Positions 6,751-63,112 of a DNA stretch of 64,000 nt are shown here, one piece after another. The notes under the pieces are model-generated. The model was not told where the DNA came from and searched no databases. It was given only the letters and a program-made list of their open reading frames with translations. The DNA is taken from IMG/VR virus record IMGVR_UViG_3300042013_000103. One strand, given 5' to 3'. Origin of the DNA: a virus. Lineage: Duplodnaviria > Caudoviricetes. Position numbers and translations under genes: made by a program. Each line of letters starts with the position of its first letter. Positions within the stretch are counted from its first letter, which is position 1.

Positions 6751-7971
6751 TTACGCCTTTTTGGGTGTTACCAAATCGCCATCGCCATCGACGGACAGTT
6801 TGATGCTACCGCGCTTTTCACCGTCCACCGTGGTGACGTAACGGATACGAAGTGACAGACGAATCTGGTCTTCCGTAGGGGTTTCCACCACCGGTGCCGC
6901 ATCCGACGCAGTGAAACCTTCGGGCAACGCCGCAGGACGGTTATACGGGATGTGTTCGCCTCGCAGGTAAATGCTGGTCTTGCACGCCGATTCGCCGCTG
7001 GCGGTGCCGACTTTGCCTTGGTCCACACGACGGTCTTTCTCGATGTCGAAGTGGATGTCCCGCACGTGTTCCCCGTCCGGAGCAAACAGTTTGATCGTGC
7101 CCTGCGAACCGTTCTGTTCCCAGACTTGATCACCCACGAACAGTTCGTTGTTGATGTGCACCGACAATGGCACCATTGCCCAGGTCCACGGCGATGGAAC
7201 GTTGAGGACGTGGAACATGTCGTACAGGTCACGTTTGGTCGGGCAGTTCATGGCGTAGCGGGCCATCGTGATCACCATGTCGTAGGACAGGGTGTTGATC
7301 GCACAGTAGATCTCCAGGTACGCACGAATGTCCGAAGGCAGTTCGTAGTCGTCGAGGATGGTGTGGATGTCCGCGTCGGTCAGGCCACCGTAAGCCAGAC
7401 GGTATTTGAAACGACCTGGGCGGTCGATCATGTTCGTGTCGATTTCGCTCACGGTGTTGGCCGTGACCACGTTCAACACGTTGCCCAACGAACTGTCGGA
7501 GAAGAACGTCAACAGCCCTTCACGGCGGTTTTTGTCTTCGGTGGCGGTGTACACCTTGCCGAACTCGTCGAACAGGAACATGCACGGAGCACACAACCGA
7601 GCGATCGCGGTCAGCAGTTCGCCAGACAGGGGCGAGTCAACGATGAACACGGGGATGTCGCGTTCCAGGACTTTGTTCGCCAGCATTTCAGCCAGCAACG
7701 TTTTGCCCGAACCTTTCAACCCTTCGAGGATCACCCCGGTGGATTGGGTTTTGCGTTCGGTGAAATCTTTCACCACCAGATCACGGTACATCTCGGACTT
7801 GCCAAAGACTTTCTCGGGCAGGTCATACTTGGCACGGTCTTTGATCAGATTCAACCCAGCCTCGGTGATGGCGATTTTGTACACGGCTGCCGGGATGTGG
7901 TCAATACGTGCTGCATCGTTCACGGAGCGGATTGCGATGTTGCCGTCGATGTTAAACAGTGCGGTGGTCAT
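6751..7971 (-). CDS. AAA+ family ATPase
   Basis: Walker A GLKGSGKT, Walker B LFLFDE, sensor TAN, DRPGRF arginine finger. Confidence 0.9.
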   Translation of the reverse strand: MTTALFNIDGNIAIRSVNDAARIDHIPAAVYKIAITEAGLNLIKDRAKYDLPEKVFGKSEMYRDLVVKDFTERKTQSTGVILEGLKGSGKTLLAEMLANKVLERDIPVFIVDSPLSGELLTAIARLCAPCMFLFDEFGKVYTATEDKNRREGLLTFFSDSSLGNVLNVVTANTVSEIDTNMIDRPGRFKYRLAYGGLTDADIHTILDDYELPSDIRAYLEIYCAINTLSYDMVITMARYAMNCPTKRDLYDMFHVLNVPSPWTWAMVPLSVHINNELFVGDQVWEQNGSQGTIKLFAPDGEHVRDIHFDIEKDRRVDQGKVGTASGESACKTSIYLRGEHIPYNRPAALPEGFTASDAAPVVETPTEDQIRLSLRIRYVTTVDGEKRGSIKLSVDGDGDLVTPKKA

Positions 7972-8042
7972 CTAGAAGTATTCCTATTGGTTGGGTAAAG
8001 GTGTGTTCGACTCACCTGAGCAGAACAGGGTGTTATTGGATT

Positions 8043-8384
8043 TTAGATTTCCCCTTGGGGTTTCGGAAGTTCCACCCCGTCGGTGAAAGTATAATGTGTG
8101 ATCAAGCGAACGCTCCAATGCACACCGTTAGAGGTGGCTTGAAGCATAAAAGCCAAGAGTTCCGGTGGGCGGTTGCCGCAGAGAATCATGTCGCGCATAA
8201 CCGCTTCGGGTACGTTAGTCATCGACTCCATTGCCGTCCCGGCTGAACTGAAATCTTTAAACGAGTGGGCCCAATGAGCATCTTCAGTCAGGGTGAATGC
8301 GCCCACACTGGCTTTCATGTAATACGTTTTATTGTAGTCGTCACTGGGGATAGCAATGACCCGGTAACTGGCTTCGCTGTACAT
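8043..8384 (-). CDS. hypothetical protein
   Basis: ORF directly downstream of an early promoter. Confidence 0.65.
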   Translation of the reverse strand: MYSEASYRVIAIPSDDYNKTYYMKASVGAFTLTEDAHWAHSFKDFSSAGTAMESMTNVPEAVMRDMILCGNRPPELLAFMLQATSNGVHWSVRLITHYTFTDGVELPKPQGEI

Positions 8385-8408
8385 AGCTAATCTCCATTAT
8401 GCACTGAC

Positions 8409-8439
8409 GTAATATAGCTCTGTTTTTTCGTTCAATGCA
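8409..8439 (-). promoter_or_regulatory. early promoter
   Basis: TGCATTGAA-N12-GCTATATTAC. Confidence 0.75.
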
Positions 8440-8797
8440 GATCAGTGAGCACCAGTTTGTACATTGCGTGCACGCCGCTCAACGCTGGGCGGTAATGCAG
8501 ATTCTCCAAGAAGTATTGTTGGCTGAGATCCAACCCCGCTTCCTGAGCAAATTCCTTAACCGTGAGTTTGCGCTGTTGTCGGATCAACCGTTTGACCTTC
8601 ATGCCCATGTGCACCAACAACCGTTGGATCGGTTTGGCAATCGGAGGCAAGTGCGCAACCCGCACGATGGTGTGCACTTCTTCGTCGTGTTTGTCCAAGG
8701 TGACGTGCACCACGAGATCAAACCCGTTACCCCGCCAATCGAACTCGACGCGGTTGTACTGCCGTTGTACCTGTGCCTTTGCCATGCGAATCCCCAT
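8432..8797 (-). CDS. hypothetical protein
   Basis: 121 aa ORF. Confidence 0.6.
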   Translation of the reverse strand: MGIRMAKAQVQRQYNRVEFDWRGNGFDLVVHVTLDKHDEEVHTIVRVAHLPPIAKPIQRLLVHMGMKVKRLIRQQRKLTVKEFAQEAGLDLSQQYFLENLHYRPALSGVHAMYKLVLTDLH

Positions 8798-8799
8798 AA

Positions 8800-8819
8800 G
8801 CTCCTCCCGAAGGAGGAGC
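8800..8819 (-). terminator. intrinsic terminator, UUCG loop
   Basis: gctcctcc-cgaa-ggaggagc after phaZ. Confidence 0.7.
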
Positions 8820-8838
8820 CGTTATTAATCCAGTGCGA

Positions 8839-9705
8839 TCATGGTTCGGTCAGGAACGTTGTCACCAAAGGCACGATCACGTCGGCTTGGGTGAGTAGAA
8901 ACAAATGCCCATCGTTGATGATGTGCAACTGAGCATTCGGAATTCGGTTTGCCAGCACCCGCATGTTGGTCAGAGGGATGAGTGGATCGTCATCCCCGGC
9001 CAATACCAGAGTGGGTTGTTTAATCGCCGGCAACCAATGCCAACTGGTCCACCAGTACACTGCCATCATCTGGTGGTAATACCCAATCTCGACCCCATTG
9101 GAGGATTTCATTTTATTGAAATGCTCTTTGGCCAATGTCGGGTTGGTGCGGAACATGCCCCCGTAGATCGAGGGTGCAATTTTCTCGCCGTAGGCTTTGT
9201 CCGTGTAGCGTCGAGGACTGGCCATCATCAACAGCACCCAAGGGGACGGTGGAATGCTCAGTAACCCGGCCGAGGTGGCGGCCAAGATCAACTTGTTGCA
9301 ACGTGTCGGGTGATCGCGAGCAAACTGCTGGGCTAAGAACCCACCCCACGAAATCCCTGCCACGTTTACTTTGTCATAACCCATTTTGGTGAGCAAGCGT
9401 GCGACCAACTTGGCCAAGCTCCCAAAACGGTACGGAATCAGTGGGGTTGAAGAACCCCCAATACCAGGAACGTCAAAGGTAATGACTTCCTGCGCTGGAT
9501 CCAGTTCTTTTACGAACGGGAACAGGAGTTCCAGGTTGGCCCCAATGCCATTAAAAATTAACAAGGGGGTTAGGTGAGATTCACCCTTTCGAACGCAGGT
9601 ACGCATGGTCTGACCGCCGACGTTGATCGTGCGGTATACAAACTCTTTGTACATGGGATCAGCACGCTCGGTTCCCCGGCGGTCAAACGTTTCTGCTTGC
9701 GTCAT
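8839..9705 (-). CDS. phaZ: poly(3-hydroxyalkanoate) depolymerase (intracellular mcl-PHA type, alpha/beta hydrolase)
   Basis: TPLLIFNGIGANLEL, FDVPGIGGSSTP, lipase box GISWG, LAGDDDPLIP and DGHLFL match Pseudomonas PhaZ; the start may be ATG 9654. Confidence 0.92.
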   Translation of the reverse strand: MTQAETFDRRGTERADPMYKEFVYRTINVGGQTMRTCVRKGESHLTPLLIFNGIGANLELLFPFVKELDPAQEVITFDVPGIGGSSTPLIPYRFGSLAKLVARLLTKMGYDKVNVAGISWGGFLAQQFARDHPTRCNKLILAATSAGLLSIPPSPWVLLMMASPRRYTDKAYGEKIAPSIYGGMFRTNPTLAKEHFNKMKSSNGVEIGYYHQMMAVYWWTSWHWLPAIKQPTLVLAGDDDPLIPLTNMRVLANRIPNAQLHIINDGHLFLLTQADVIVPLVTTFLTEP

Positions 9706-9804
9706 TCCAGCACCCTTAAGATCTTTTAATTATGGGGACAACGGTTTATACCTCATTATATTTTAACAGTAAGTTTTACTTCGACTACCCTTACCGTCCC
9801 CATA

Positions 9805-9826
9805 GGCCCCTCCCGAAGGAGGAGCC
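9805..9826 (-). terminator. intrinsic terminator, UUCG loop
   Basis: cctcc-cgaa-ggagg hairpin. Confidence 0.65.
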
Positions 9827-9837
9827 GTTATGCCGGT

Positions 9838-10941
9838 TTAGGCTTCTTTCACGGTGAGCTGGTGCAAGAATGGCCATTCCCGCACGAACTGGTTTATTTT
9901 GGCGTCTTCTACTTGCTGCACCAGGGTGTACCCGTTATTAACGAAGAACCGGACGGTATCACTGATTTTGCCTTGGTTCACAATCACCGTCGGATACTGT
10001 GGCAGGTGATCCATGTGCACGTGAATCGACTTCGTCACCAACCACTCGATGCGGGCCAGTGTGGCGTCTTCATTCATCTTGATGTTACTGTTCGCCGGGA
10101 TCTGGTTAATGATGGCGTCTGGGAAATCCCATTCCAACAACCAGCGCTTGAGCAGGTTGTTGAAGTACTCGACATGCGTGGGGGTGATGACTTCTTTCTG
10201 ACGTTTTCGAGGGGACATGATGTTTTCATGTATCTCGACCACCTTGTCGATCGGGTCCACAAACCAACTCTTCAGTTCACTGTCTACTGCCCGGGTTAAG
10301 GCAGCGACGTCCACATTGGAATTACGGACGTACCACTGCGGTACCACAGACGGGTCTTTGCGAATGCACCCCAGCACCACGCTGATGAAACTGTTCTCGA
10401 GACGGACCATGGCGTCCAGCACTTCCAATAAATGCTTGGCTTCGAGGTTAGTGGCCTGTTGGCACGCTTCGAACGTGGTGAACTTCCCGGCGGTGGCAAA
10501 CGGCATCAGATAGGCGAGGAGTTGACAGGTCTTATGGCGCATGAAATAGGGTGGTGTCTCCATGCCCCGAGGAGCATAGGTTTCGATCAACTTGGCTTGT
10601 AACGACTGCTTCGCCAACACAATGGCATCCGCTGACAACAGCGCCTTCAACCGTTGTGGTTTCACGTCGGGGTATTCGTTATCCGCAATGCACGCCACCA
10701 TCAGTTCGTTTTGGGTGTAGCGCTTTAATTCGGGAATCCCCGCAAGCTGTTTTAGGATGGATTCCTCCCCTTCCCAAATGGCGTGCAGGACGTCACGGAT
10801 CCATTCCAGCGAGTACCCGACCTTCGCTTCGGACAGGCTAACCCGTTTTTGTCCGATCACGAGGCAGGTAAAGAGTTGGTTGTAGATTTTTACGATGGCG
10901 TTCAGTTGTTCTGCGTTGAATGGTTGGTGAAAACGTGTCAT
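9838..10941 (-). CDS. hypothetical protein
   Basis: 367 aa ORF. Confidence 0.75.
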   Translation of the reverse strand: MTRFHQPFNAEQLNAIVKIYNQLFTCLVIGQKRVSLSEAKVGYSLEWIRDVLHAIWEGEESILKQLAGIPELKRYTQNELMVACIADNEYPDVKPQRLKALLSADAIVLAKQSLQAKLIETYAPRGMETPPYFMRHKTCQLLAYLMPFATAGKFTTFEACQQATNLEAKHLLEVLDAMVRLENSFISVVLGCIRKDPSVVPQWYVRNSNVDVAALTRAVDSELKSWFVDPIDKVVEIHENIMSPRKRQKEVITPTHVEYFNNLLKRWLLEWDFPDAIINQIPANSNIKMNEDATLARIEWLVTKSIHVHMDHLPQYPTVIVNQGKISDTVRFFVNNGYTLVQQVEDAKINQFVREWPFLHQLTVKEA

Positions 10942-11046
10942 GTGAAACTCCTGCTCGGCTTGAGCATTGAATGAACCTTTAACCCGACTTGGACTAAAGG
11001 TGGGGAAGGTTCCAGGTCGACTTGACCTAAAACCAATTACCGTTAT

Positions 11047-11502
11047 TTAGAACTCGATTACTTCTAATAACTCAACGGAACCCGGGGGTTCCATCTCGAA
11101 CGTTAGGATTGGCATGCCTTCTACCATAATAGCCTTGGGGAGAGGGTGCTCCCCACGGAGCGCACAGGCATACGCGTGGATAGGACGCAAACAATCTAAC
11201 AGTACTTCTTCCATGAGCAGTGGATGACTGCCGGGTGCTTGATTCCTGTTCAATGTAGGCGTCGCTTCCAACCCATTCAGACCAACATCCAAGGCAAAGG
11301 CGACGGTGGTTCGAATCCAAGTGTTTTCGTTAAACACATTAAACACCACCTCGAACGCGCCTCGACCTTGGAGTGGTTTGTAAAACCGCATGGTCGCGTT
11401 CTTGTACTCCACCGCCTTGGACGGCATACCGAGGTTATCCCGGATGATGGCGCTCAACAGTCCGGTAATCAATTTGGTGGTTATTCGTTGTGATTCGCTC
11501 AT
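11047..11502 (-). CDS. hypothetical protein
   Basis: 151 aa ORF. Confidence 0.65.
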   Translation of the reverse strand: MSESQRITTKLITGLLSAIIRDNLGMPSKAVEYKNATMRFYKPLQGRGAFEVVFNVFNENTWIRTTVAFALDVGLNGLEATPTLNRNQAPGSHPLLMEEVLLDCLRPIHAYACALRGEHPLPKAIMVEGMPILTFEMEPPGSVELLEVIEF

Positions 11503-11870
11503 TCTGACCTCCGGGCCGCTAGATCAGACCGTCTGATCACGTCGATAACAGTTTCATCACCACACCAGCCTTCGGTCAGTACTTTCGCGTGTTCTTTGGC
11601 ATAAGCTTTTTTCCAACGTTCCCACAAGATCCACACCGTCATAGGAATGAAGTCAATGGTGACCGTAGAGTTCTGTTCCCTCTTTGCAAATTCCCGCATG
11701 CCCAACCGCTGCATTACCACGGACAGCTGAGCCAAGTCTGACTTGCCGGGTGCGTGAAAGACCAGAGTTTGTTTCTTCTCATGTAGTTCGGTTAACACAT
11801 TGCTGACGTAGGTCATGTAGATTCCTATTGGTAAAAGACGATATAAGCAGGCACCCCGAAGGGCACCCAC
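11499..11870 (-). CDS. hypothetical protein
   Basis: ORF; the real start is probably MTYVSN. Confidence 0.6.
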   Translation of the reverse strand: MGALRGACLYRLLPIGIYMTYVSNVLTELHEKKQTLVFHAPGKSDLAQLSVVMQRLGMREFAKREQNSTVTIDFIPMTVWILWERWKKAYAKEHAKVLTEGWCGDETVIDVIRRSDLAARRSE

Positions 11871-11905
11871 CTTACTGTGCTTTGAAGCGTTTCCACAACC
11901 GGGGT

Positions 11906-12241
11906 TCAGATCCAGTTTTCTTCACGGGTAACCCCACCCATGTCCACCCCGATTTCCTCGCAACCGATGCCTTCGCCGACACCACTACCTGCGCCAGTAC
12001 CCCAATTCACATCGTTCATCTTTAAAGCCTCATTCGCTTTCAGTTCAGCCAACGTTAAGCTGCCCCAACGACGGCGCGGATTACCACATAACATGCAACG
12101 AGGACGCCCGCAGTTCAAAGGATTCTGCTTGCGCAGTTTCCCCGGCGACCCAAAGATCGGCTGGTGGTAAATGTCCAGGTGCAGTTTGAGGTACTTAGCA
12201 ATGATCCGCTGGTCGTGGTGACGCCGTTCTGACAGTGACAT
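11906..12241 (-). CDS. small basic protein with a C-x4-C-x2-C putative Zn site
   Basis: NCGRPRCMLCGNPRR. Confidence 0.6.
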   Translation of the reverse strand: MSLSERRHHDQRIIAKYLKLHLDIYHQPIFGSPGKLRKQNPLNCGRPRCMLCGNPRRRWGSLTLAELKANEALKMNDVNWGTGAGSGVGEGIGCEEIGVDMGGVTREENWI

Positions 12242-16284: not shown

Positions 16285-17625
16285 TTACACCGCGATTGGG
16301 TAATCGATGTGGGGGAGGGACCCGTAGTCGCGAATGTCGAAATCTTCGAGTTTGAAATCGGTGATCTCGGTGACCGACGGGTTGAGGTACAGCACGGTGG
16401 TTTCTTCCAGCGGTTCACGTGCCAGTTGTTCTTTCACTTTATCCACTTGGTCGAGGTAGATGTGGCTATCGCCGGTGCAGTGGATGAACTCTTTCGGTTC
16501 CAGGTTGCCCACCACTTGGGCCAGCATCATGGTGAGCGTCGAATACCAGGCGATGTTATACGGCACGCCGACTGGGTAGTCTGCTGAACGCTGCGTGAGC
16601 ATACACGAAATCCAACGGGTTGGAATGCCATGGTTGGTGGCGTAGTCGTGTAGCATCTGGGCCGCTTTGGTAGAAGGATGACAGTGTGGATTCGCCAGCA
16701 TTTCGCGCCATGGGGTTAACATACCAGGGAAAGCCCCGGTGGTGTCGAAGTCACGGTCCATCCATTCGCTGAACAGGTTCCAGTGTCCGCCCTTACCGAA
16801 TTTCAGGGCCTCTACCAAGTCTTTGACCGATTTGTCGGTGATGTCGAACTGGAAGAATGCATGGCACGGCGGCAATGCCATGTCATCCAGCATGCCTGGG
16901 TTCCAGGCCGTGATGATGTGGCGACGGCTGTCAGGGTTGGTGCGCAGCGAGTTCACCAGCTCGGACAGCTGATCGGTGTTGCGGTACAGCACCACTTCAC
17001 CCGGGGTGTTGGCTTCGCCGACAATAGCAAACCCTTTACCCAACCACTTCTGGCAGTCCGCAGAATCCCGGGCCACAATCTTGAAGGTGTCCCAGTAACG
17101 GTACTGGTGACCATACACGGCACCAAGTTCACCGTCCATCAAGACTTCAGTGCGCACGCCCCGAATGTCCATCCAGTCGATAATGGCTTGGACGTCTTTG
17201 GGTTTGCACCAGAGCTTACCGTATTGCACGGTGGTGGCGTCTTGGTAAGTCTTGTGCAAACGGTGGGCGAAATGTTTGTTCCATTCGTCCAGGTGTTCCA
17301 TGGCGTCTTTCTGTACAAACTGAACGCGCTCGTCCCATGAATAAGTGCGGTAGACTTCGGTGCCTTTCTTGACCCACTTGTTCCAGAAGGTCACACCGCG
17401 GTCAATCAACCCTTTCAGGTGCGTGTCGCCGGTCAGGTACCACAGGCCTTCACGGACCGCATGCAACAACGGAATGTACCGCGTGGTCACCGCCGGGAGG
17501 TTGTTGCGTTTCAGGTTATACCGGGTTTGCATCCCGAACGTCGAGATCGTGCCGGTACCGGTACGGTCACCTTTGACGGAACCGTTGTCCAGAATGTATT
17601 GCAACGCTGCAAGATATTGTTTCAT
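16285..17625 (-). CDS. thyA: thymidylate synthase with large insertions
   Basis: GDRTGTGT, ELGAVYGHQYR, DSRRHIITAWNP, catalytic LPPCH, QRSADYPVGVPYN, GDSHIY. Confidence 0.95.
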   Translation of the reverse strand: MKQYLAALQYILDNGSVKGDRTGTGTISTFGMQTRYNLKRNNLPAVTTRYIPLLHAVREGLWYLTGDTHLKGLIDRGVTFWNKWVKKGTEVYRTYSWDERVQFVQKDAMEHLDEWNKHFAHRLHKTYQDATTVQYGKLWCKPKDVQAIIDWMDIRGVRTEVLMDGELGAVYGHQYRYWDTFKIVARDSADCQKWLGKGFAIVGEANTPGEVVLYRNTDQLSELVNSLRTNPDSRRHIITAWNPGMLDDMALPPCHAFFQFDITDKSVKDLVEALKFGKGGHWNLFSEWMDRDFDTTGAFPGMLTPWREMLANPHCHPSTKAAQMLHDYATNHGIPTRWISCMLTQRSADYPVGVPYNIAWYSTLTMMLAQVVGNLEPKEFIHCTGDSHIYLDQVDKVKEQLAREPLEETTVLYLNPSVTEITDFKLEDFDIRDYGSLPHIDYPIAV

Positions 17626-61057: not shown

Positions 61058-63112
61058 TTAGAAACGGTCGGTGGTTTGGGCGAACGCCGACAGGGTACGG
61101 GCGATGTCCCCGTCCAAGCCCCACGACATCAGGTTGGTGGGCGAACGCCAGCTGCGGAAGTTCTGCACGGCTCGGGTCAGGTTGAGGTTCAACCGTTTCC
61201 CAGCGTAATAGAAGTCCGCCCAGGTTTGTGACGTCAAGGTGCCCACGTAATCCTGGAACAACGACTGTTCATCCCACACGGCCCCTTCCGACAACGCGAT
61301 GCCCGTGGCCAAACCTGCTTCAGCGTTGCCCAAGGCCCCACCTATTTGTTCCGACGCCAACGCAGTGCCTGCCCGAGCCGCCGTGCCCAACCAGCTGTTC
61401 GAGGCAAAGCCGCCTTTCAACGGCATGTACATCAACTTTGACAGGTCTTTGAAGCTGATGCTGACTTCCAGGCCCAGCATGTCGTGGTCCGCGTTCCAAC
61501 CGATGTTACCGGTACCACGGCGTACGGTGATGTTGTCCACAATCCCCAGCTGCCGTTGTACGCGCCCTTGGTGGTAGATCTGTACAATGAACGGGGCGGT
61601 GTACGCCGACCGTCCAGCGGCCTTTGGGAGGCCCAAAGGCAGGATCATCGCCAAGGGGATGTACAGGTTCATGAACCGGGAGATCTTGTTCCCGTACGGC
61701 GACACCAAGGGAATGGTGTAACTCGCCGTCGGCAGTTGCGCTGTGGCCGATTCCCAGTATTCCGGCACGTCCACAAACGCCGAACCGGTCAGTGTGGCCA
61801 AGCCCGACATGTTCACCGAGTCGGCAGCACCCCCGATCACGCCTTTCACCATCGCAATGGCTTGCCCCACGCCTTCCGTGACGTTACCGCCCATGAAGTT
61901 GAACGACGCAGCGCGCCCTTCCTTGACCTTAGTGTCCAGTTGTGAAGCCACCCCCACTTCGGTGGTGGAGTTGCTGAACGATTCCGACACTTCCCCCGTG
62001 TAGTCCACCCGGAAAGTCACGAACTGCGAACCGTCCCGTTGTGCACCGATAATGAAATCGTACGACTGGGACAAGTCCGACCAGCTCGAGAAAGACTCCG
62101 TGTCGATGATCCCGCTGTCGCCGGACTTGTTGGTTTTGGCCAAATAGTCCAGGGCATACTGCCTCGCTGAAACCCCCGGGTTCGGGTCTTCTTGACTGGT
62201 CTTCTGCAGTGCCAACACCCCGGCCTTCAGTTCCGCGATCGTGGTGGCTTTCTCTTGGAGGGATCGCATGGCTTTTTGAGCCGCGTCTGATTTACGTTGA
62301 GTACGACCAGCAAGAGCCATAACATCGACACCACCTTCCTCGCGAAAGAAACCGGGGAAGATGCGGTGGAGTTCTTTGACGTCTTCATGGGTCACCTGCT
62401 GTCCTGGGTCTTCCATTGGTGCGGGCGTGTTGGCGTCCCCCATGATGCGGGGAGTGATGCCCAGACCAATCGCGAATTCATTGGCCAGTAGGTTCACGGC
62501 AGACCAGTACGCGTGCATGTTCGGTTTGAAGTAAAACCACTTCGAGGGGTTGGTTTTCTGCAGGAACGACATCACCCGGCTCGCCCCGGTCAGGCCGATG
62601 ATAAACGGTTGCAAGGGCAACGTAACAATGAAGCCCCCCACGTTCCCCAGGTTGTACCAGAGGCTCGACACTTGCCCGCTGTTGGCAAAGGCTGCCGCGG
62701 AACGGTCGTAGAAGTTCACGAAGAACCCCGACCAGCTGGAGAACCGAGGGTCCCCCACGGAAATGTGAATCTGTTGCCGTGTGTCATCGTGCGCTTCGGA
62801 ATAGTAACGTCCCATGCCCATGATGGCGTCTTTGTCTTCCCGACCGCGCCCGGGTAACCGGATGTCACAGTAACGGGTGTACTGCGGCAGGTTGTTGATG
62901 GTGTAGTTGCCGCCTAAGGTCGTGTTGGTGAACTTAAAGGCCGCGGACGTAGCGTTGCGTCGTCCGGTCTCGGAACCGAAAGACCCTTTCTCAAAGCTGG
63001 TGGGCACGAGGAAAGCTTGGCGCATGTTGATGGGCGTTGGAATCGTCGCCATAGCAATGCTCCTGTCTGGAAAATGCGAAATAAGAGACCTCCCCCGAAG
63101 GGAAGGCCTCAT
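61058..63112 (-). CDS. virion structural protein (phiKZ-like baseplate/tail tip)
   Basis: 684 aa, downstream of the lytic tail protein as in phiKZ-like gene order; start probably MATIPT. Confidence 0.6.
63089..63106 (-). terminator. hairpin with UUCG loop
   Basis: cctcccc-cgaa-gggaagg after the stop at 63119. Confidence 0.55.

Follow-up and report, generated by a model that had tools for sequence, protein, structure and literature searches.

Why should a virus of bacteria carry a gene whose product may consume the carbon store of its host? The question is raised by a gene for a PhaZ-like depolymerase of medium-chain-length polyhydroxyalkanoate (mcl-PHA) found in IMG/VR virus record IMGVR_UViG_3300042013_000103 (Duplodnaviria; Caudoviricetes), of which a stretch of 64,000 nucleotides, here called the window, was analyzed. 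Pseudomonads whose nutrition is unbalanced, as it usually is in soil and wastewater, keep their main reserve of carbon and energy in the form of polyhydroxyalkanoate (PHA), and PhaZ mobilizes mcl-PHA granules into 3-hydroxyacyl monomers. The gene probably represents a phage-borne lineage of intracellular mcl-PHA depolymerases that split long ago from that of the Pseudomonadaceae, has moved among many phages and would mobilize host PHA during infection. An auxiliary metabolic role on host PHA is the best-supported reading of the sequence data.

The PhaZ-like protein and its family

The translated gene (Table 1) belongs to the Pseudomonas-type intracellular mcl-PHA depolymerases; it is full-length and, to all appearance, catalytically competent. 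The protein scores 395.3 bits (E = 1.4e-118) against TIGR02240, the NCBIfam equivalog for poly(3-hydroxyalkanoate) depolymerase, over profile positions 2–265 of 276; the curated equivalog cut-off is 250.6 bits, and bacterial members reach about 607–614 bits in the profile search. The runner-up NCBIfam family attains 112 bits only, and Pfam recognizes a generic alpha/beta-hydrolase alone (Abhydrolase_1, 118.7 bits). These scores bear out the full-length match to Pseudomonas intracellular PhaZ claimed in the original prediction, and the three catalytic motifs named there are likewise intact: GISWG at residues 117–121, GDDDP at 237–241 and DGHL at 265–268. Within them Ser119, Asp240 and His267 occupy the alignment columns of Ser102, Asp221 and His248, the triad of PhaZ from P. 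putida KT2440 (PhaZKT; numbering according to PMC12504323), and the Ser-Asp-His triad is invariant across an alignment of 47 sequences. The FNGIG loop lies at residues 51–55, with Asn52 at the place of PhaZKT Asn35, and Ser201 aligns with the lid-hinge residue Ser184; according to published work, mutation of Asn35 or the change Ser184Phe abolishes or nearly abolishes depolymerase activity (PMC12504323; Asn35 from de Eugenio 2008). The N-terminus, read off the sequence, is charged and without a hydrophobic signal sequence, so that a cytoplasmic location is predicted.

An AlphaFold2 model built on the alignment (mean predicted local distance difference test score 91.9, with disorder confined to residues 1–13) places a helical lid, residues 155–216, above an alpha/beta-hydrolase core. 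Among the Swiss-Prot models, P. oleovorans PhaZ (P26495) is the sole near-complete fold match, with a template modeling (TM) score of 0.92 and a root-mean-square deviation of 0.8 Å over 269 residues, lid included; the remaining matches have TM scores of 0.78 or less.

Part of the phage clade also has an N-terminus of its own. In 12 distinct phage-clade sequences the protein is preceded by an extension of 17–30 residues with the motif (E/D)RRxxx(E/D/N)R, often followed by DPxY, which occurs in none of the bacterial PhaZ sequences compared. In the window protein the extension comprises residues 1–19, is predicted to be disordered, and has the motif in the form DRRGTERADPMY. The long start is supported by the conservation of this extension across unrelated phages and by an AGGG Shine-Dalgarno sequence about 8 nt before the first ATG.

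Phylogeny, selection and spread among phages

In a collection of 5.8 billion proteins, the named PhaZ of Pseudomonas, Halopseudomonas and Atopomonas are 61–65% identical to the window protein, and the best 80 matches in species-representative genomes (60–64%) belong to the Pseudomonadaceae with one exception, an unclassified gammaproteobacterium. The closest proteins, at 66–73% identity, are unnamed metagenome sequences.

A rooted tree was obtained by a quick IQ-TREE search (LG+C20) with non-pseudomonad bacterial outgroups. These were sampled by searching 401 Pseudomonadota genomes with the family profile, which gave ten hits of about 610 bits, one of 303 and twelve of 177–239, the weaker ones being used as outgroups. 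The tree places a clade of 76 rows, all in phage context or from unnamed metagenomes (80 in the Shimodaira-Hasegawa-like approximate likelihood ratio test, SH-aLRT), as sister to the Pseudomonadaceae PhaZ (30 rows, support 97), with an SH-aLRT of 99 for the joint stem. When only rows of known origin are considered, a single label change parts phage from bacterial sequences. The window protein lies in a subclade of eight rows (support 97) together with lambda-like, intein-terminase and RNA-polymerase contigs, and its attachment to the bacterial rows is rejected by the approximately unbiased (AU) test (delta lnL 97, p = 0.005). A first tree with a distant viral root had nested the bacterial clade within the phage diversity; this arrangement was discarded, as outgroup rooting makes the two clades sisters. 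The comparison with host PhaZ that the original prediction had proposed thus upholds the placement in the PhaZ family but puts the gene beside the bacterial clade and not inside it. These results indicate more than the mere capture of a host gene by this one carrier; the window gene belongs to an old, diversified phage-borne clade. The joint clade does not include the homologue of Ralstonia phage RP12 or that of one IMG/VR contig; both stand beside non-pseudomonad homologues and represent separate captures.

The ratio of nonsynonymous to synonymous substitutions (dN/dS) against the closest DNA relative is 0.10 by the Nei-Gojobori method, a value to be taken as an upper bound because dS, at about 2, is near saturation. 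Among phage copies the ratio is 0.13–0.21 (overall span 0.08–0.21) and between two bacterial genes 0.12. The GC content of the gene (53.0%) is close to that of the window (54.0%), Pseudomonas phaZ having 58–68%. Low dN/dS and phage-like GC both indicate that phages have carried the gene for a long time and that purifying selection has acted on it there.

The carrier is a phiKZ-like jumbo phage. Large open reading frames (ORFs) of the window match PHROG families of phiKZ-type virion proteins, NAD-dependent ligase, helicase, thymidylate synthase and thymidylate kinase; a 684-aa virion protein is 63–68% identical to its counterparts in PhiPA3, PA1C, PS119XW, 201phi2-1, Psa21 and Phabio, and a contig of 308,580 bp is recorded for the PhaZ protein itself. 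Virion, replication and nucleotide-metabolism genes of phiKZ type stand at a distance on both sides of phaZ, the immediate neighbors being orphans. Megablast of positions 7000–12000 found no match in 50,697 phage records, and the carrier is for this reason regarded as a new relative at the species or genus level. The setting among phage genes described in the original prediction therefore holds, and so does the lack of phaC neighbors: tblastn with PhaC1, PhaC2, PhaD, PhaF and PhaI of P. aeruginosa found no match in the whole 64-kb window. The gene is a host-derived metabolic gene within a bona fide viral genome, maintained by selection, as is characteristic of a viral auxiliary metabolic gene. 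Pseudomonas, to which the original prediction pointed as host, or a close relative is a reasonable assignment in view of the virion-protein similarity and the sister relation to Pseudomonadaceae PhaZ; these stop short of proof, and Ralstonia phages RP12 and RP31 carry a family member of 47% identity.

The gene recurs in many other phages. All six metagenomic relatives whose contigs were fetched have phage-type surroundings, with marker genes that include ERF/YqaJ/HNH; an intein terminase and RtcB; a T7-type RNA polymerase fragment and thymidylate synthase; dihydrofolate reductase among runs of small same-strand ORFs; NAPRTase/RNase H/Ro60; and S24 repressor/primase/NinX. An alignment-driven scan of IMG/VR detected relatives of 37–67% identity on 54 viral contigs of 5–283 kb, where a scan with the single protein as query had confirmed nothing. 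Seven of ten large neighboring ORFs on IMG/VR contigs have a PHROG match, the families comprising RecE-type exonuclease, tail fiber, minor head, lytic tail, DNA-transfer and jumbo virion proteins. The P. aeruginosa locus has the canonical order phaC1-phaZ-phaC2-phaD-phaF-phaI; at the phage loci no phaC, phaD or phasin gene occurs within 8 kb of phaZ.

Large phages are represented repeatedly. A complete IMG/VR genome of 283,622 bp with terminal repeats encodes a PhaZ that is 59% identical to the window protein and belongs to a different subclade; this phage is also taken to be phiKZ-like because its virion-protein homologue is 61% identical to that of the window. The two phages have no flanking gene in common, and the different subclades and non-homologous flanks indicate that these related jumbo phages acquired PhaZ separately. 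A 228-kb phage and RP12/RP31 add further cases. No synteny was found between the window and any of the PhaZ-carrying phage loci, additional matches being restricted to generic thymidylate synthase, dCTP deaminase and antisense shadow ORFs. Among the latter, a 119-aa antisense ORF (8905–9264, plus strand) that appears conserved in about 50 phage loci was rejected as a gene, since it is a shadow of the conserved phaZ frame.

Two of the relatives' contigs have features of their own. On the 228,597-bp IMG/VR contig, eight tandem ORFs of 307–331 aa directly downstream of the PhaZ gene (L046:8877-16571, minus strand) look like a paralogous gene array. Another phage contig, which encodes a close relative of PhaZ, bears beside the small terminase an 863-aa gene (L003:784-3375, plus strand) with matches to Hint and LAGLIDADG; the product is probably a large terminase containing an intein.

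Possible roles during infection

If the enzyme acts on host PHA, it would be made in the infected cell outside the phage nucleus, bind to the PHA granules and hydrolyze the polyester to (R)-3-hydroxyacyl monomers. Through acyl-CoA synthetase and beta-oxidation of the host these would yield acetyl-CoA, reducing power and ATP, and phage DNA and protein synthesis could thus be sustained in nutrient-limited soil hosts that store carbon as PHA. Since the phage gene stands apart from the phaC-phaZ-phaD-phasin control of the host, the normally balanced PHA cycle would be pushed towards net mobilization. The case for a nutritional benefit draws on the established biochemistry of PhaZ and on the precedent of Bdellovibrio discussed below.

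Several observations weigh against this reading. The lid (window residues 150–211) is 50% identical to that of PhaZKT, compared with 64–68% for the two halves of the core. In PhaZKT the lid controls substrate specificity, and the single lid-hinge change S184F almost eliminates PHA hydrolysis and raises esterase activity (PMC12504323); PHA activity of the window protein is for this reason not to be assumed. The bacterial C-terminal tail ERxRAVMHPRP (about 15 aa), to which the activity-enhancing mutation G286R maps (PMC12504323), is judged to be absent from most phage versions, that of the window included, because their C-termini end 22–25 residues after the DGH motif, the distance being 36–41 in the bacterial proteins. 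The monophyly of the phage clade has only moderate support (the SH-aLRT of 80 comes from a quick search), the early-promoter-like core CTATATTAC does not occur between phaZ and its upstream neighbor, and searches of about 8.4 million papers and preprints yielded no description of phage-encoded mcl-type PHA depolymerases.

The diverged lid also keeps alive the view, considered rather unlikely, that the fold and triad were retained while the enzyme came to cleave another ester (for example only oligomers of PHA, 3-(3-hydroxyalkanoyloxy)alkanoic acids, lipids of membranes or other kinds, or acyl-homoserine lactones, AHLs) and would serve signaling, lysis or counter-defense instead of carbon mobilization. 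The lid is the most diverged part of a protein that has also gained its own N-terminal extension and lost the C-terminal tail, and in PhaZKT specificity is highly sensitive to the lid (PMC12504323). A search of the Protein Data Bank with the window model returned no solved structure of this PhaZ family among the matches, the best of which, at 18–28% identity, are generic esterases, phospholipase A, an enol-lactonase, an AHL-degrading esterase and a Bacillus depolymerase of polyhydroxybutyrate (PHB). The RP12 homologue is annotated as an esterase/lipase, and Ralstonia, the host of RP12 and RP31, stores short-chain PHB. On the other hand, the full-length identity of 61–65% to named PhaZ and the equivalog-level score argue against a change of substrate, as do the lid backbone motifs MASPRRY, IAPxIYGGxFR and GYY, kept in both the phage and the bacterial clades, and the close superposition of the model on PhaZ with its lid.

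It is distinctly improbable that the enzyme serves to clear bulky PHA granules that hinder centering of the phage nucleus, capsid trafficking or assembly, with monomers as a mere by-product. The enzymology would be identical to that of PHA mobilization for nutrition, and the phiKZ-like nature of the carrier together with the independent acquisition of PhaZ by a second phiKZ-like phage and by the 228-kb phage would suit such a role. However, most carriers are not jumbo phages and include lambda-like phages and others of about 40–100 kb, so that a nucleus-specific need cannot explain the PhaZ family, and enzymatic erosion of whole granules inside one latent period is not established. That the gene is a passenger, i.e., neutral captured host DNA with no role in infection, is hardly credible: it does sit in a variable region among orphan genes with repeats typical of cassette exchange on both sides, but its frame and triad are intact, its dN/dS is about 0.1, its GC has adjusted to the phage, and the clade was acquired repeatedly and persists in dozens of unrelated phages.

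Mobilization of host PHA remains the preferred reading, and a bolder form of it may be put forward tentatively. The phage PhaZ may have been re-tooled, the extension and the loss of the tail letting the enzyme reach phasin-coated granules and escape PhaD/PhaF-linked control, so that PHA would be mobilized in one direction only and nucleus-forming jumbo phages would have recruited the function at least twice, each time independently. This elaboration is doubtful; if true, stored polyester would decide phage yield in starved pseudomonads of soil and wastewater.

Should phages hydrolyze PHA, a large intracellular carbon pool would be drawn into the viral reprogramming of host metabolism, which would help to explain how giant phages, whose biosynthetic needs are heavy, can multiply in starved cells and would have a bearing on how stable industrial PHA fermentations are. 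In the phage clade there is also a panel of diverged candidate mcl-PHA depolymerases that vary naturally in the lid and at the termini. It has practical value for the recycling of bioplastics because the bacterial mcl-PHA depolymerase is reported to be difficult to engineer and to occur almost exclusively in one genus (PMC12504323).

Anatomy of the locus and comparison with known systems

A 35-nt direct repeat (Table 1) flanks the gene with one copy on either side; it is made up of ATAAC, a 9-bp GC stem closed by a TTCG loop and then YTATGGGGA. The intergenic region upstream of phaZ contains, in order, one copy of the repeat, a mini-ORF, an AT-rich stretch and the AGGG Shine-Dalgarno sequence. 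On the other side, the ATG of the repeat (8797–8795) is the start codon of the following gene. Neither flanking orphan has a tblastn match in the phage records; the downstream one has no Pfam family, and the upstream one has no PHROG or Pfam family.

Table 1. Coordinates of the phaZ gene and of other features of the window
Feature	Position	Strand	Details
PhaZ-like mcl-PHA depolymerase gene	8839..9705	minus	288 aa; TIGR02240, Pfam Abhydrolase_1, alignments, AlphaFold2 model
Upstream intergenic region	9706..9837	minus	132 nt; sequence read directly
35-nt direct repeat, upstream copy	9797..9831	minus	hairpin −22.2 kcal/mol, z −3.07
35-nt direct repeat, downstream copy	8791..8825	minus	33/35 identical; hairpin −17.5 kcal/mol, z −2.25
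Mini-ORF	9803-9756		15 codons; starts at duplicated ATGGGGA
AT-rich 20-mer	9745-9764		single occurrence in window
Downstream orphan gene	8432..8797	minus	121 aa; first 7 nt inside repeat
Upstream orphan gene	9838..10941	minus	367 aa; ends 6 nt before upstream repeat
TTCG hairpins	80-100, 8800-8820, 9806-9826		80-100 a looser third copy
CTATATTAC sites	2102, 5255, 8417, 19696, 26847, 43524, 59808 and near-matches (span 2094-59808)	minus
AAA/STAND-like ATPase gene	6751-7971	minus	406 aa; phrog_2376, Pfam AAA, nSTAND3
Thymidylate synthase gene	16285-17625	minus	446 aa
Virion protein gene	61058-63112		684 aa

The original prediction had given the gene a terminator of its own. A 9-bp GC hairpin with a UUCG loop is indeed present 18 nt past the stop codon (8800-8820), but on the phaZ strand it is followed by no T-run and leads straight into the start codon of the gene downstream, and it is part of one copy of the bracketing repeat; the terminator scan made a call on the opposite strand only. 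The three hairpins of the window share the form GGCYYCTCC-TTCG-GGAGRRGC, are located at gene ends and have no T-run on the coding strand; this family may serve the phage for termination or RNA stability and be a site at which accessory cassettes recombine. The hairpin module was found in none of the 165 loci fetched, and it is thus considered to belong to the carrier phage and not to have traveled with phaZ. The sequence would be consistent with a phaZ unit of about 1 kb that entered, or was fixed, between hairpin modules of the phage itself, duplicating one of them. A relative with an empty site was sought by tblastn of both flanking orphans and gave no homologues, so that the argument for insertion is that of the repeat.

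Both repeat copies contain TATG (9804-9801 in the upstream one), an element of phiKZ late promoters (PMC7598289) that is too short to serve as evidence by itself, and a scan for sigma-70 promoters yielded two weak sites, with no excess over shuffled sequences. The 9-mer CTATATTAC occurs 13 times in the window with at most one mismatch (3.8 expected), 11 of these sites, among them all eight exact copies, being on the minus strand. Early operons are probably marked by this 9-mer, which is similar to the AT-rich core of early promoters in phiKZ-like phages.

Two other genes of the window may be mentioned. The ATPase gene lies about 900 bp downstream of phaZ, past two small orphans, and the thymidylate synthase, which matches its PHROG profile only over positions 33–308 of 335, seems to carry an insertion of about 130 aa.

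Compared with known systems, the window protein stands closest to the PhaZ of P. putida KT2440/KT2442 and P. oleovorans (P26495), with which it shares 61–65% identity over the catalytic domain, the triad, the FNGIG loop, the lid architecture, a cytoplasmic location without signal peptide and, in the model, the overall fold (TM 0.92). The bacterial gene lies between phaC1 and phaC2, whereas that of the window is phage-encoded and belongs to the sister clade; the bacterial proteins score about 610 bits against 395, and the window protein has the extension, lacks the tail of about 15 aa and is 50% identical in the lid. With the phage PhaZ lineage of IMG/VR and Logan contigs it shares clade membership, purifying selection and a self-contained gene, about 1 kb long, that is set among those of a phage. 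It differs in that its carrier is a phiKZ-like, nucleus-forming jumbo phage, the nearest relatives (73%) being on small contigs of non-jumbo phages, and in that the gene is bracketed by the 35-nt hairpin repeat of its carrier.

ORF269 of Ralstonia phages RP12 and RP31 (esterase/lipase; 256412-257227 in the RP12 record) provides another case of a jumbo phage, in this instance with its own RNA polymerase, that carries the same superfamily branch, at 47% identity over 91% of the length; the RP12 protein, however, lies outside the Pseudomonadaceae-plus-phage clade, near non-pseudomonad homologues, as a separate capture. Viral genes touching PHA metabolism have also been proposed from metagenomes, namely phaC, phbB and fadD as auxiliary metabolic gene candidates in PHA-enrichment reactors (PMC12013262) and a PHB depolymerase candidate in a Gloeobacter prophage (PMC13317609); these are synthesis genes or a short-chain PHB depolymerase, and neither study covers the mcl-type TIGR02240 phage clade or its spread. 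The nearest functional analogy is that of Bdellovibrio bacteriovorus. Its mcl-PHA depolymerase PhaZBd is of the extracellular type, belongs to a bacterial predator and lies outside this family as a non-viral enzyme, but it digests the PHA of the prey and raises the fitness of the predator (PMC7174725), a predator thus profiting from the polyester stored by its prey.

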